Below the pieces are notes generated by a model that was not told the origin of the DNA, made no database searches, and saw only the letters and a program-made list of their open reading frames with translations. DNA of 64,000 bases from Escherichia phage vB_EcoP_EP32B: sequence record OR544955. One strand, written 5' to 3'. Shown here in pieces: positions 1,059 through 44,428 of the stretch (its first letter is position 1; each line of letters opens with the position of its first letter). A program made the position numbers and the translations under genes.

Positions 1059-1066
1059 TATTTATA
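1059..1066 (-). promoter_or_regulatory. Late promoter (TATAAATA) for gene 34
   Basis: Plus-strand TATTTATA = minus-strand TATAAATA, ~30 nt upstream of gene 34 ATG. Confidence 0.7.
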
Positions 1067-1069
1067 CCA

Positions 1070-1100
1070 GTTTACGCTTTCAAATGAGTATGTTACTATA
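1070..1100 (+). promoter_or_regulatory. T4-type early promoter upstream of rnh
   Basis: GTTTAC at 1070-1075 and TACTAT-type -10 about 18 nt downstream. Confidence 0.6.
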
Positions 1101-36613: not shown

Positions 36614-38029
36614 ATGGCCTTCACTGTCACGTTATCTCCTCTAACTCCTACAGGGGTTATTGGAGGTTCACAAACATTCACTGCTACACCCGCAGGTGAA
36701 GCTCCAGACGGTACTATTACATACGTCTGGACTGTAGATGATATAACACAGGGCTCTACAGCTGCTACAATGGATTATACTCTTGCTTCTCCAGCAGGAA
36801 CAAAAAAAATTAAAGTGGTTGCAACTAATACACTTTCCGAAGGAGATCCGGAAATAGCTGAAGCATCAACAACTATCACTGTTAATAAGAAAGAAAATAA
36901 TTCCACTATCACTGTTACTCCGGCTTCTCCAGCGGCAGTAGAAATTGGAACAGCAACAACATTCACTGCTAATGTAAACAATAAACCTACTGGTGCTGCT
37001 ATTGCTTATACATGGAAAGTTGACGGGGTCGCTGTCGACGGTCAAAAACAATCAACCTTTGAATATACACCAACATCTGAAGGAACTAAGTCTATAACTT
37101 GCTCTGCCACAGTGACTGCAACTGATTACGTTGATAAAACGGTAGAATCATCAGCGGTTTCTTTGACTGTAAATAAAAAGGCTAATTCTTCAACGCTAAA
37201 AATTACACCAGAGTCTCCGACTACAGTCTTTGGTGTTCCTATTACTTTAACTGCAAATGTCTCTAGTGCACCTTCAGGTGCTACTACATCATTCCAGTGG
37301 TCAATGGATGACAGTAATATTCCAGATGCAACTTCTGCTACGTATAAATTCACTCCAACCGAGGTCGGAAGTAAAACTCTTAAATGCACCGTATCTGTTT
37401 CTGCAACAAATTATGTTACAAAAGAAATTTCAGCAGAAGCAACAGTAGTAACTAATAATGCGACATTTAATAGTGCCACCATTTCTTTATCTCCGCCATC
37501 AGTTAATACTACTGTTGGTGAAACTGCAACTTTAACAGCATCTGTTACTGGTGCTCCGGGTGATACTAATATTGTGTATTCTTGGAAGAAAGACAACGTA
37601 GCAGAAAGTAATTCTACTAATACTTACAGTATTGATACCTCCTCGGCAGGTACTCATACAATTAAAGTTGAAGCAGTATTAACTAAAGATAATTATACTT
37701 CAAAGACAATTAGTTCAACCGCTGAAGTTGTTATTGCTGAACGGACTCCAATTGAACCAGAAGGTGAACTACCTTATGTTCATCCTCTTCCGCATCGTAC
37801 TTCAGCTTACATCTGGTGCGGATGGTGGGTTATGGATGAAATCCAAAAAATGACTGAAGAAGGTAAAGATTGGAAAATTGACGATCCAGATAGTAAGTAT
37901 TACTTGCATCGTTATACGCTTCAGAAGATGATGAAAGACTACCCAGAAGTTGATGTTCAAGAATCACGTAATGGATACATCGTCCATAAAACTGCTTTGG
38001 AAACTGGTATCATCTATACATATCCATAA
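36614..38029 (+). CDS. hoc: Hoc outer capsid protein with four tandem Ig-like domains plus C-terminal capsid-binding domain
   Basis: 471 aa; four ~93-aa repeats each starting near ...ITVTP/LKITP/ATISLSP and ending ...Y.WK.DD / ...TV.NKK; Trp-rich C-terminus (YIWCGWWVMDE). Confidence 0.8.
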   Translation: MAFTVTLSPLTPTGVIGGSQTFTATPAGEAPDGTITYVWTVDDITQGSTAATMDYTLASPAGTKKIKVVATNTLSEGDPEIAEASTTITVNKKENNSTITVTPASPAAVEIGTATTFTANVNNKPTGAAIAYTWKVDGVAVDGQKQSTFEYTPTSEGTKSITCSATVTATDYVDKTVESSAVSLTVNKKANSSTLKITPESPTTVFGVPITLTANVSSAPSGATTSFQWSMDDSNIPDATSATYKFTPTEVGSKTLKCTVSVSATNYVTKEISAEATVVTNNATFNSATISLSPPSVNTTVGETATLTASVTGAPGDTNIVYSWKKDNVAESNSTNTYSIDTSSAGTHTIKVEAVLTKDNYTSKTISSTAEVVIAERTPIEPEGELPYVHPLPHRTSAYIWCGWWVMDEIQKMTEEGKDWKIDDPDSKYYLHRYTLQKMMKDYPEVDVQESRNGYIVHKTALETGIIYTYP

Positions 38030-39690: not shown

Positions 39691-39717
39691 AAAAGGGACC
39701 GTAAGGTCCCTTTTTTT
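39691..39717. terminator. Bidirectional terminator between rnlB and gene 24
   Basis: AAAA-GGGACC-GTAA-GGTCCC-TTTTTTT between convergent genes; overlaps gene 24 stop. Confidence 0.8.
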
Positions 39718-40999
39718 ATTCATCAATGATAATTTTTGGTAGCTTAACACCGAGTAAAACAGACAAGTCTGAACGTCCTGCCATTTTATCCATGTCCCCG
39801 CCATCAATTATTCTCGCTTCTTTTTCATCTTTTGCTACTGTGTAAGGATTTGCTGATAAGGCATATCTAACCAATAATCCGATAGACGGTTGCAAGCTTT
39901 CTGGATCAACTACAACTTTAAATGCACCGACATGTTCCGGGTCATCTAAATCCACTCCTTCAGTATATGGAGCATAAAAGATGGACCCTACAATTTCTTT
40001 TTCGCCGAGATTTTCTACAACACCCACAATAACATAATCTAACGGGCTGTTGGTATCGCAGTAAAGAGGTAATCCATTTGCCAAGAATCCATAAGCATTT
40101 TGTGAAAGATACTTGTCATCTTCTGGCTTATGTTTTAACCAACCGGAAGCAGCAAGAATAGCAGCTGCACGAGCTGAGGCTACACAAAACGTTGCAGTAT
40201 AAGTTGTCTCTTTTTGGATGTGTGATACCATTTCACACACCATTCGATATAACGAACGACCTGCTTCTGGAGCGGATGCATAGCTCAAGTCAATAAATCC
40301 GGTGTCAGTAATTCCAGTAACTTTATAACGTTTCGATACAGTAATTAAAGACTGAAGAATATCTTTATTAATTTCATCTGCCATTTCAGTAGCAAGCAAA
40401 TCTTCTAAGAAGTTAGGGGCATCAAATCCATTCGCTTCCAAATCTTGCGCTAATTCAACCGTGAGGCCAGTTTTAAGTTTACGAGATTTGACTGAAGTTT
40501 GCCATTTATTAATCTGGAATCTTGCATCAGAAATTTCGCTATCAGAGCTTTCAAATTTGCTTGTTACCGCTGCATCTGAAAATAACCGTACCTTTAAATG
40601 AACGACCGCAATCTGAAGAGCTAATTCTAGATCACTTTCTTGAATATCTGCAAATGGTGTATCTTCTAACACTTTATAGACGATATTATTATATTTGAAA
40701 AAATCGCCTTTATTTAGTGTGACTTTTGATTCTTCTGTGAGTTCGGTAATTTTTTCTCGGTCTACATATCCAACTTCACCAGCATAAGTAGCACCGGTTT
40801 TAAATGTGAATTCGTTATCTGGGTTAAGATATTTGATACCATAAAAAGCAGCAACAGGTTGATTAGTTCTTTGTGTTGCTACAATGTCAGAATATATTAA
40901 TTTAGTCGTAGCGCGAGTCAAAGCAACGAGATTTGGGCGACCAATTGAGTTGCTAGTAGACGTTGTAGATTCACGCAATAATTTTTGGATTTTACTCAT
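39716..40999 (-). CDS. 24: Capsid vertex protein gp24
   Basis: 427 aa, identical to T4 gp24 length; late promoter 28 nt upstream; paralogous to gp23. Confidence 0.88.
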   Translation of the reverse strand: MSKIQKLLRESTTSTSNSIGRPNLVALTRATTKLIYSDIVATQRTNQPVAAFYGIKYLNPDNEFTFKTGATYAGEVGYVDREKITELTEESKVTLNKGDFFKYNNIVYKVLEDTPFADIQESDLELALQIAVVHLKVRLFSDAAVTSKFESSDSEISDARFQINKWQTSVKSRKLKTGLTVELAQDLEANGFDAPNFLEDLLATEMADEINKDILQSLITVSKRYKVTGITDTGFIDLSYASAPEAGRSLYRMVCEMVSHIQKETTYTATFCVASARAAAILAASGWLKHKPEDDKYLSQNAYGFLANGLPLYCDTNSPLDYVIVGVVENLGEKEIVGSIFYAPYTEGVDLDDPEHVGAFKVVVDPESLQPSIGLLVRYALSANPYTVAKDEKEARIIDGGDMDKMAGRSDLSVLLGVKLPKIIIDE

Positions 41000-41026: not shown

Positions 41027-41034
41027 TATTTATA
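41027..41034 (-). promoter_or_regulatory. Late promoter for gene 24
   Basis: Minus-strand TATAAATA 28 nt upstream of gene 24 start. Confidence 0.65.
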
Positions 41035-41040
41035 AAGATT

Positions 41041-41070
41041 GTTTACAACGTATTTGGTATGTGATACTAT
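41041..41070 (+). promoter_or_regulatory. T4-type early promoter for ORF 41101..41370
   Basis: GTTTAC 41041-41046; TGATACTATAGAC -10 region (same module as 18351/18794). Confidence 0.55.
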
Positions 41071-41100
41071 AGACTTATCAACTACAGAGGAGTAAACAAA

Positions 41101-41370
41101 ATGACTAAAGCACGTTTCTTACGAGATACTTTAAAAGTTCTGGAAGCTGAAGCAGTTAAGTTAGTAGAAAAATATGGTGCAAAAGTTAATGGTAATGCCT
41201 TCAACAAAGTATGGATGAAAGTTGATTCTGAAGCTCGAGCTAAAGGTTATTGGGCCACTGATAAACTTGCATCATTCAAAAACAAAGACGGTTCTCCAGC
41301 ATATATCCAAGAAGGTATGCCTAATTGGCAAAATATTTTGAAAACTTACATCAAAATTGCACAGAAATAA
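41101..41370 (+). CDS. Hypothetical protein on the early-sense strand between genes 24 and 23
   Basis: 89-aa ORF with its own early-type promoter (41041-41070) and RBS GGAG. Confidence 0.5.
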   Translation: MTKARFLRDTLKVLEAEAVKLVEKYGAKVNGNAFNKVWMKVDSEARAKGYWATDKLASFKNKDGSPAYIQEGMPNWQNILKTYIKIAQK

Positions 41371-41398
41371 AACCAAAAATGGGAGACCGAAGTCTCCC
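41371..41398 (-). terminator. Intrinsic terminator after gene 23 (inverted copy of the gene 32 terminator hairpin)
   Basis: Minus strand reads GGGAGACTTCGGTCTCCC followed by ATTTTTGGTTTT. Confidence 0.8.
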
Positions 41399-41422
41399 AA
41401 AATAAGATTTAATCAATTAAGA

Positions 41423-42951
41423 TTAGATGCCTTTTACATATACACGGCGGAAGTAAGCGTTCTTACCAAGGCTGTTCAGGATAGACGGCATACCGGACTG
41501 GATGCGAGCACCTGGAGCCTGCAGGGAACTTTCAGCAAACGGGTTAACACCGATACCGTAACGAGTTTTGAAGCCCATTACCGGCTGGAAGTTCTTAGGA
41601 TCAGAACCACGCAGTGGGGTAAGTGCAACGTAAGGAGCATAGTAAATACCTGCATCCATTTCGTTAGCGCCTTTGTAACCAACGGTGAAGTAATCCTGTT
41701 TAGCATACTGGTCGATGTATACGCGGTATTTACCACCAAGTACACCGGCAAATACAGACTTAGTAGTGTCGGTATTAAAACCAGAAGCCAGACCCTGTGC
41801 AGCGTAAGAAATACCAGTATCAACTGAAGCCAGTACGTTAACTACGTTACGGGAAGCGATAATGAAGTTACCTTCACCACGACCGGTTTGACGAGCAATT
41901 TCAACTGCTTCTTTATCAATCTGGAACAACAGAGATTTAAAGCTTTCACCGGCCCAACGAGCACCACGGATATCAATCGGGTCCTGGAAGTCAAATACAC
42001 CAGCTTTAGAACCCGGAGTCAGGGTCATACCGGATTTACCAACCTGTGCTGAGTAGTTAATCCAATCAACAACTTCACGGTTGATTTCTAGCATAATTTC
42101 TGTAGCCAGAATACCACTCAGTTCAGCATCAGCATCCATACCGTGTACTGCACGGAGGTCTTGTGCTAATTCGATAGAGTAAGCAGCTTTCAGCTGGCGA
42201 GATTTAGCTTCGATAACTTGTTTATCGATACGGAAGCCCATTTCATTCCATGGGTTATCGGTAGAACCGTTGAAACCTTCCTGAAGTTCAGCGATAGAAG
42301 TAGCCATACCTTCAGCGATTTCTACCAGTGCACCAGCTTCCATTTGTTTCTTAACTTCGGCATCTAATTTAGCAGCATCGGTCGCATCGATTGTTACTTG
42401 AACAGAAGCTTGCAGATATACAGTACCAGTTTCCTGGAAGAAGTGAGTGCCAGAGCTGGGAATTTCTTAGCAGCACCCTGACCAGAGAACATCGCATCTG
42501 GGGCATACATCGGATGGAAAGCTTCTTTAGCGCCAGCAGCGATAGGGTCTTTACCATATACTGCACGGAGAGCAAATACCTGACCGGTCGGGCTGTTCAT
42601 AGGCTGAACACCACAAATATCAAAAGCGATCAGATTAGGAATAGCACGACGAACCATACCCATAACTGCTGGCCCAATTTGGGTTACTGCACCAGAGGTT
42701 TGACCTGCTGCGATGTTCTGAGCATTATAACCATGGTCACCACCAATTTCAGCTTCGGTCAAGAAAGAACCAAATGCCTGAGCGATTTTCTCGTCTTTAT
42801 ATTCAGGGGATACTTCGAAATCTTTTTCCTGGTTTTCGAAGATTTTAGCGATAATAGCCTGCTTGCTATTAGCGATTTCCGGCAGGCCTTCACCTTCCAG
42901 CAGTTCTTTCCATTTGTCTACGAGCTGAGCTTTAGTTTTGATAGTAGTCAT
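41423..42951 (-). pseudogene. 23: Major capsid protein gene 23, broken by a frameshifting deletion near 42447
   Basis: ORF 42394..42951 = MTTIKTKAQLVDKWKELLEGEGLPEIANSKQAIIAKIFENQEK...AAKKFPALA then out of frame; ORF 41423..42343 continues MEAGALVEIAEGMATSIAELQEGF...YFRRVYVKGI. Both match T4 gp23 nearly residue for residue; about 12 residues after FPALA are missing. Confidence 0.9.
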
Positions 42952-43819: not shown

Positions 43820-44428
43820 ATGCTTTTAAACTCTCTGCGAGAGCTTTAAATGCTTCATCAGCACTGTTTTTGGTGATTTCCACCGAATTTTCTGATTCTG
43901 ATATTTGTTTAGGAGTAACCCAAGCATCTGGAGCAGAAGGTCCCCACACGGCATCTACGCCGACGGTTAATTTAAATCCTTCGTTCACGATACGGTACCC
44001 TTTATTGGTGTCGGTTAAAGAACCAAGACCACGAGAGGAAACACCTGGAATCCAACCAGCTCGTATATTAGCAGCTAATTTATCGCCGGGACCATGGTCG
44101 CCTTCAATAATTCTAGCGCGTCCATATACATCGTTTCCTTTCCACCACATATCTTCAATAATGATAGCGGCTTGCATAGGGTCAACATTTGCGCGAGGTG
44201 GATGATTTAATTCTCCAAGGGCTTGTTTGGTTGCGCTTTTTCCAAAACGCGTTTAGGATATAAACGTTTATTTCGGTTAACAACCTCTGCCTGAAGAAAA
44301 ATACCTTCTATATAAAGCCCTGGTTTTAAGCCAGAATCTTTTCCATCATGAGATTCCAACATTGGAACGCCATCAATAATCTCACCGGGTTGACCCCAAG
44401 TTTCAATAAGTAACTCGGGTTTATTCAT
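43815..44428 (-). pseudogene. 21: Prohead protease gene 21, broken by a frameshifting deletion near 44230-44236
   Basis: ORF 44207..44428 = [31 protein letters not shown]...RLYPKRVLEKA then out of frame; ORF 43815..44177 = MQAAIIIEDMWWKGNDVYGRARIIEGDHGPGDKLAANIRAGWIPGVSSRGLGS... Correct frame resumes at ...TKQALGELNHPPRANVDPMQA; about 10 residues missing. Confidence 0.85.

Follow-up and report, generated by a model that had tools for sequence, protein, structure and literature searches.

What is a small gene with early-type signals doing between two late capsid genes that are read in the opposite direction? This question is raised by an open reading frame (ORF) of 89 codons found between gene 24 and gene 23 in the 64-kb stretch of phage DNA that we analyzed, referred to below as the window. 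We characterized the signals around this ORF, its family and predicted product, and the contents of the corresponding slot in related phages, and we weighed several explanations for its presence there.

Layout of the cassette between genes 24 and 23

The region was found to be 99.3-99.8% identical to Mosigvirus genomes, including moskry, PhAPEC2, JS09, and HX01, and the window belongs to Mosigvirus, within the RB69/JS09/PhAPEC2 group. On the plus strand, between 41041 and 41403, a promoter, a GAGGAG site, the ORF, and a hairpin common with gene 23 follow one another in this order (Table 1). With both flanking genes on the minus strand, the cassette reads away from gene 24 and toward gene 23. 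In the annotations of SA79RD and PhAPEC2, the gene at the position corresponding to gene 24 is labelled head vertex protein gp24. This layout agrees in every element and position with a preliminary description made from the letters of the window, which had proposed an early-type unit antisense between late genes 24 and 23 and had noted that the 89-aa ORF ends just before the gene 23 hairpin; nine bases lie between the two.

Table 1. Features of the cassette and its flanks, in window coordinates.
Feature	Position	Strand	Detail
Gene 24, capsid vertex protein, left flank	39716..40999	-	427-aa ORF
T4-type late promoter TATAAATA of gene 24	41027..41034	-	exact match
T4-type early promoter (predicted), GTTTAC-N15-TGaTACTAT	41041..41070	+	sequence
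Parts of the predicted early promoter	-35 GTTTAC 41041-41046; extended -10 TG 41062-41063; -10 TACTAT 41065-41070	+	
Shine-Dalgarno GAGGAG	41087..41092	+	sequence; 8 nt ahead of ATG
89-aa ORF, phrog_6003 / RB69ORF188c/189c / JS98 orf173 family	41101..41370	+	ATG 41101, TAA 41368-41370
Hairpin TGGGAGAC-CGAA-GTCTCCCA	41380..41399		8-bp GC-rich stem, common to both converging units
Gene 23, major capsid protein, right flank	41423..42951	-	two ORFs, 41423..42343 and 42394..42951

Eight matches to a strict pattern for T4 early promoters (GTTTAC-N14-16-TGNTANNAT) were counted across the 64 kb of the window, compared with 0.07 expected, and all of them lie on the plus strand. The site at 41041 is one of these eight, and the early promoter predicted at this position is judged to be more than a chance match. 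A loose generic sigma-70 scan gave no local enrichment (4 found, 4.2 expected). Transcription from the candidate promoter would start near 41077. It was noted that just 6 bp separate its -35 element from the gene 24 late promoter, so that the two promoters stand back to back, and no late promoter TATAAATA was found when the plus strand near the ORF was searched for one. The SA79RD record annotates the same early promoter, together with the late promoter and a bidirectional terminator. A second back-to-back pair was observed at window positions 1059-1099, with a late TATAAATA on the minus strand (1066-1059) and an early GTTTAC...TACTAT on the plus strand (1070-1099); here the gap is 3 bp, and the architecture is as at the 23-24 slot.

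The promoter comparison took in five alleles of the ORF and four slots bearing an endonuclease gene similar to segD of T4. The late promoter was kept as TATTTATA (its reverse complement) in every slot compared. The -35 element and TGnTAnnAT were kept with a diverged spacer in JS98, in L024, L026, and L027, and upstream of the SegD-like genes. A GAGGAG or GGAG was found at the same place in all ORF alleles compared.

On the minus strand the hairpin carries a UUCG loop followed by a U-run at 41379-41369. The terminator scan matched on this strand only, and the hairpin is the predicted intrinsic terminator of gene 23. Its folding energy was -13.5 kcal/mol on the plus strand and -16.5 kcal/mol on the minus strand. 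The plus-strand hairpin is therefore stable but has no U-tract after it, which makes termination of the ORF transcript uncertain, and the unit may not be cleanly monocistronic. The hairpin was kept in all slots compared, including the empty ones, and a search of the slot for RNA families gave no Rfam match.

The cassette has already been described and is not new. More than 100 genomes carry the ORF under the label of hypothetical protein, and the PhAPEC2 record equates it with RB69ORF188c. For the RB69 slot, an early promoter (Pe:109605) and a late promoter (Pl:109573) were predicted in 2006, as was a terminator, '23-><-RB69ORF188c', by TransTerm (PMC1524935 supplement). No mention of the name RB69ORF188c was found in the papers that the literature search covered. 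The same gene, slot, orientation, promoter, and hairpin are thus found in the window as in RB69ORF188c/189c and JS98 orf173 (phrog_6003). In the RB69 study (Nolan et al. 2006, PMC1524935), 57 early promoters were predicted for this phage, and 13 of these precede novel ORFs. The window ORF belongs to exactly this class of novel small ORFs with early promoters of their own, except that it lies within the block of late capsid genes and not in an early-gene region.

The gene family and its predicted product

On the comparative evidence, the ORF qualifies as a genuine protein-coding gene. Its dN/dS, computed on unsaturated pairs only, was 0.06-0.16, which reflects purifying selection, and the phrog_6003 profile was matched with E = 2.6e-45 (residues 1-89 against profile positions 1-90 of 90). 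Through tblastn the ORF was encountered in 240 phage records, approximately 119 at 90% identity or more and approximately 120 near 35%. The identity was 96-100% in the approximately 119 Mosigvirus records and about 35% in Dhakavirus (JS98 orf173). Alleles with 100, 69, 61, and about 35% identity all occupy the same slot in the same orientation in Mosigvirus, Dhakavirus, and metagenomic phages, and the three metagenomic alleles (69%, 61%, and about 35%) lie antisense between the gp24 and gp23 genes. This position between genes 24 and 23 was recorded in SA79RD, PhAPEC2, RB69, mogra, JS98, LF82-35, and the three metagenomic contigs. Alleles that have diverged down to about 35% identity in one slot indicate long residence and not a recent swap.

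More distant members of the family, in ABPH49, L029, and L030, are located elsewhere than the 23-24 slot. One member from an rV5-like Acinetobacter phage sits in an array of small hypothetical genes, and another follows the tail genes of a siphovirus contig; such settings in unrelated phages are usual for mobile accessory genes. When 1.8 billion representatives were searched exhaustively with an HMM, only seven proteins were recovered, one of them the Cyt-b5 repeat protein P0013 considered below, and the family is therefore very narrow. A word-indexed search for a wider family returned eight proteins, and a scan of IMG/VR returned only six loci, all of the Dhakavirus type.

Not every copy is intact. 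In the RB69 reference (L034 5292-5532) the gene, which also has clustered substitutions, is split by a +1 and a -1 indel into ORF189c and ORF188c, while the mogra copy is broken by a 1-nt deletion (L005 1501-1769). Compared with the RB69 reference, the window carries an intact, endonuclease-free allele. The breaks in RB69 and mogra are either real pseudogenes or sequencing errors. Because the gene is broken in these two phages and absent from most genera examined, it appears to be dispensable. The ORF has a GC content of 34.4%, compared with 38.1% for the window and 37.5% for gene 24, and a GC3 of 0.23 compared with 0.25; a deviant base composition of the kind that would mark foreign origin was not seen in the ORF.

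The window protein is lysine-rich and hydrophilic (GRAVY -0.56), with a pI of 9.8, a net charge of +7.5, and no cysteine. The members of the family are 84-90 aa long, all hydrophilic and all devoid of cysteine, and all but one strongly basic (pI 9.5-9.8). The residues K3, F6, G31, N32, N35, and Q70 are invariant. Homology and structure prediction had been proposed as a check in the preliminary description, and an AlphaFold2 model was obtained from a six-sequence alignment (pLDDT 86.4). The modelled protein has helices at residues 3-25, 31-48, and 76-88 and a beta-hairpin at 56-70, and is thus predicted to form a three-helix bundle with the beta-hairpin inserted between helices 2 and 3. No informative relative was found by sequence or by fold. 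The Pfam search of the ORF returned only DUF4859, below its cut-off, the NCBIfam and PADLOC searches returned nothing meaningful, and the PDB sequence profile search returned nothing below E = 0.37. An early accessory role is all that we infer for the protein.

A cytochrome b5-like domain (PF00173) was considered and rejected, as no Pfam Cyt-b5 match was obtained and the likeness is a 30-residue local match confined to residues 40-70. It was observed that P0013, a metagenomic protein of 655 aa made up of Cyt-b5-like repeats, has repeat starts (W..EKLA.YNGKNGQPAYIAVNG) that resemble residues 40-70 of the 89-aa protein (W.TDKLASFKNKDGSPAYIQEG). This likeness probably reflects a common motif of the hairpin region and not homology.

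Occupants of the slot and the relationship to SegD

The preliminary description had suggested comparing the 24-23 region across T-even genomes. From this comparison, the slot was found to hold the ORF, a SegD-like gene, both, other genes, or nothing. An empty spacer of 83-90 bp was found in two Tequatroviruses (teqskov and vB_SsoM_113) and in representatives of Jiaodavirus, Karamvirus, Lasallevirus, and Gualtarvirus (the further phages examined being KP17, CW742, Acj61, and MP1). In these empty slots the late promoter is followed directly by the hairpin. The slot holds other, co-oriented genes in Krischvirus, Aeromonas phage 44RR2.8t.2, and Slopekvirus, and an antisense SegD-like gene without the ORF in one Winklervirus, one Moonvirus, and one Gelderlandvirus phage. 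It was also observed that Dhakavirus-type and Gelderlandvirus phages (L003, L024, L027, L033) have two tandem copies of gene 24 (24a, 24b), and that the cassette adjoins the copy proximal to gene 23.

Every examined slot that is occupied by the ORF or by a SegD-like gene carries TATTTATA followed by GTTTACA-N14-TGnTAnnAT, in T4 in an apparently weakened form. At the aligned place between segD and gene 24, T4 has ATTTACA-N14-TGaTATTAT (L020 2734-2823), and the alignment of this element to the window and JS98 gave z = 3.7-3.9 against shuffles. A 2010 review (PMC2988022) reports that no promoter had been found for segD, and that no other homing endonuclease gene of T4 lies antisense to the genes beside it. 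The aligned element suggests, as a lead, that T4 may keep a weakened copy of the early promoter of the slot. The segD ATG was observed 2 nt after a GGAG.

That segD occupies this slot in T4, as had been claimed in the preliminary description, was found to be correct, in the same orientation as the window ORF. The T4 cassette also has the hairpin in common with the window and a promoter-like element after the gene 24 late promoter. It differs in that its protein is unrelated and T4 has no copy of the ORF. The description had further held that the ORF is different from and unrelated to SegD, with a segD remnant as the finding that would overturn it, and BLASTP and hhalign were both in line with the lack of a relationship. 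BLASTP of the ORF against T4 SegD gave a single 17-residue match with E = 0.035 for a single comparison, which is not significant, and against the LF82-35 endonuclease it gave no alignment. No Pfam match to GIY-YIG was obtained for the ORF, and the model does not have the GIY-YIG alpha/beta fold.

The claim that the ORF replaces segD did not hold. In Mosigviruses of the LF82-35 type and in some Dhakaviruses both genes occur in tandem, with the ORF stop followed after 3 nt by the ATG of a SegD-like GIY-YIG endonuclease gene. This arrangement was encountered in LF82-35 and about 30 other Mosigvirus-type records, and also in the Dhakaviruses IME08 and IME341. In addition, segD of the T4 type was found at 95% identity or more in only 53 records, and the persistence in the slot of ORF alleles with approximately 35% identity points to long residence as opposed to recent replacement.

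In Escherichia phage LF82-35 (L021 2224-3156), which has a Mosigvirus backbone, the flanks are 94-96% identical to the window, and everything between the start of the Shine-Dalgarno site and the terminator has given way to an ORF allele of the Dhakavirus type (34% identity) and a SegD-like gene. This is the pattern expected from homing with co-conversion, judged from the aligned sequences. The LF82-35-type endonuclease was found at 95% identity or more in 31 records. In endonuclease-free Dhakavirus alleles, it was observed that the ORF stop is followed by TATAG-AAACAAG (JS98, L003 3265-3282, compared with L008 and L021), where TATAG equals the last 5 nt, stop included, of the SegD-like gene in endonuclease-bearing alleles. 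The TATAG may have been left behind when an endonuclease gene was lost, or it may have been there beforehand and been reused by the SegD-like gene.

A wider reading of these slots is tentative and, in our estimation, doubtful. It holds that the 23-24 slot is a conserved early-promoter landing pad across Tevenvirinae, whose payloads are swapped by SegD-family homing, and that T4 segD derives from an arrangement of ORF plus endonuclease in which the ORF was lost and the -35 element decayed from GTTTAC to ATTTAC. The 89-aa protein could then be tied to the endonuclease, for example through DNA binding at or near the homing site, or it could alternatively be an early counter-defence factor riding with the endonuclease.

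Role of the cassette and competing explanations

The explanation that we favor, at a probability of about 0.65, is that the cassette is an independent early transcription unit carrying a dispensable accessory gene, long resident in the 23-24 slot of Mosigvirus and Dhakavirus. Just after infection, the unmodified host sigma-70 RNA polymerase would recognise the early promoter at 41041-41070, back to back with what would be the gp55-dependent late promoter of gene 24, and a short plus-strand mRNA would be made from the predicted start near 41077. The GAGGAG site would direct translation of the lysine-rich, soluble protein of 89 residues. In the early phase, this protein would probably bind some macromolecule of the host or the phage, either nucleic acid or an acidic protein surface, and act stoichiometrically. 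The numerous small early ORFs of T-even phages have been proposed to work in this manner in host takeover or counter-defence. On reaching the gene 23 hairpin with no U-tract behind it, some transcripts may read through antisense to gene 23. The same slot also houses SegD-family genes, either alone or directly downstream of the ORF, and the window has the allele without an endonuclease.

The explanation that best survives beside this one, and which we nevertheless regard as unlikely, is that the ORF persists as part of a SegD-family homing locus. The ORF would be flanking cargo that is co-converted with the endonuclease and kept by linkage instead of benefit, and it may contain or border the cleavage site. 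The exchange of exactly the Shine-Dalgarno-to-terminator stretch between nearly identical flanks in LF82-35-type phages, the 31 records with that type of endonuclease, the antisense SegD-like genes in the same slot in four further genera, and the early promoter common to all these slots are consistent with such a locus. However, purifying selection was also seen in endonuclease-free lineages (dN/dS 0.08 for JS98 compared with L010), the ORF is intact in the approximately 119 Mosigvirus records that are free of the endonuclease, and homologues are present in unrelated phages with no endonuclease nearby.

Less probable again is that the RNA is the important product, with the ORF incidental. Read-through antisense to gene 23, or occlusion of the gene 24 late promoter, would modulate capsid expression. 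The absent U-tract on the plus strand, the 6 bp between the early -35 and the late TATAAATA, and the retention of the promoter even where the downstream gene differs would fit such a role. Against it stands the conservation at the level of the protein, which keeps its length of 84-90 aa and its core residues with a dN/dS well below 1, as well as the strong, conserved Shine-Dalgarno site. Furthermore, the slot is without an early promoter in two Tequatroviruses and in most genera examined, which make capsids all the same, and no Rfam family was matched.

A late head-assembly accessory protein is very improbable: the position between genes 23 and 24 is the one point in its favor, while the ORF is oriented opposite to the late genes, has an early-type promoter with no TATAAATA on its own strand, is absent from most of the T4-like genera examined that have the same capsid genes, and is broken in RB69, a viable laboratory phage. 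The common slot and orientation with T4 segD and the weak 17-residue match (E = 0.035) might suggest that the ORF descends from a SegD-type GIY-YIG homing endonuclease, either as a decayed remnant or as a domain that split off from one. This reading is effectively refuted by an hhalign profile-profile probability of 0.2%, the lack of any alignment to the LF82-35 endonuclease, and the presence of both genes intact side by side in the same genomes.

The accessory-gene explanation can be compared with the morons of lambdoid phages. As reportedly described by Hendrix and colleagues, morons are independent units of promoter, gene, and terminator, inserted between two genes that lie side by side in relatives. 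Like a moron, the window ORF appears to have its own promoter, would be transcribed independently of its neighbours, and sits between late genes that are adjacent in related phages. Unlike the morons, it belongs to a lytic phage with no prophage expression, apparently lacks a dedicated terminator on its own strand, and does not deviate in base composition, and its long residence across two genera differs from a sporadic moron insertion. The preliminary description had called the cassette a moron-like replacement; the insertion between otherwise adjacent genes is retained from that view, and the replacement of segD is discounted by the tandem occurrence of the two genes.

As it stands, the ORF is one more small early T-even gene with a proposed role, already present in databases, and if its protein does prove to be a host-takeover or anti-defence factor, one member would be added to a large pool. 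The slot itself may be of wider use, as a recurrent insertion site where a conserved early promoter would serve the ORF, a SegD-type endonuclease, or both. Comparing the slot across phages yields a concrete, testable account of why segD of T4 is oddly oriented and apparently lacks a promoter. The Mosigviruses with the ORF only and those with the ORF plus endonuclease, with their flanks 94-96% identical, provide a natural allele pair for the study of homing and co-conversion.

Several features of the window outside the cassette were also observed. Compared with SA79RD, gene 23 is missing 6 nt (at 42386) and 34 nt (at 42449), and gene 21 is missing 28 nt (at 44235). These deletions split both essential genes, 23 (major capsid) and 21 (prohead protease), into two ORFs each. 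Among the closest matches listed, the match falls into two pieces spanning 34-40 extra bases, which indicates records without these gene 23 deletions. An artefact of assembly could account for the deletions in genes 23 and 21, as could a genome that is defective or a sequence that was edited. Finally, the Hoc-like ORF at window positions 36614-38029 encodes 471 aa, whereas its counterpart in SA79RD has 1131 nt (376 codons). The DNA of the two phages aligns only from window position 37754 on, and the Ig-repeat part of the Hoc-like ORF therefore differs between them.
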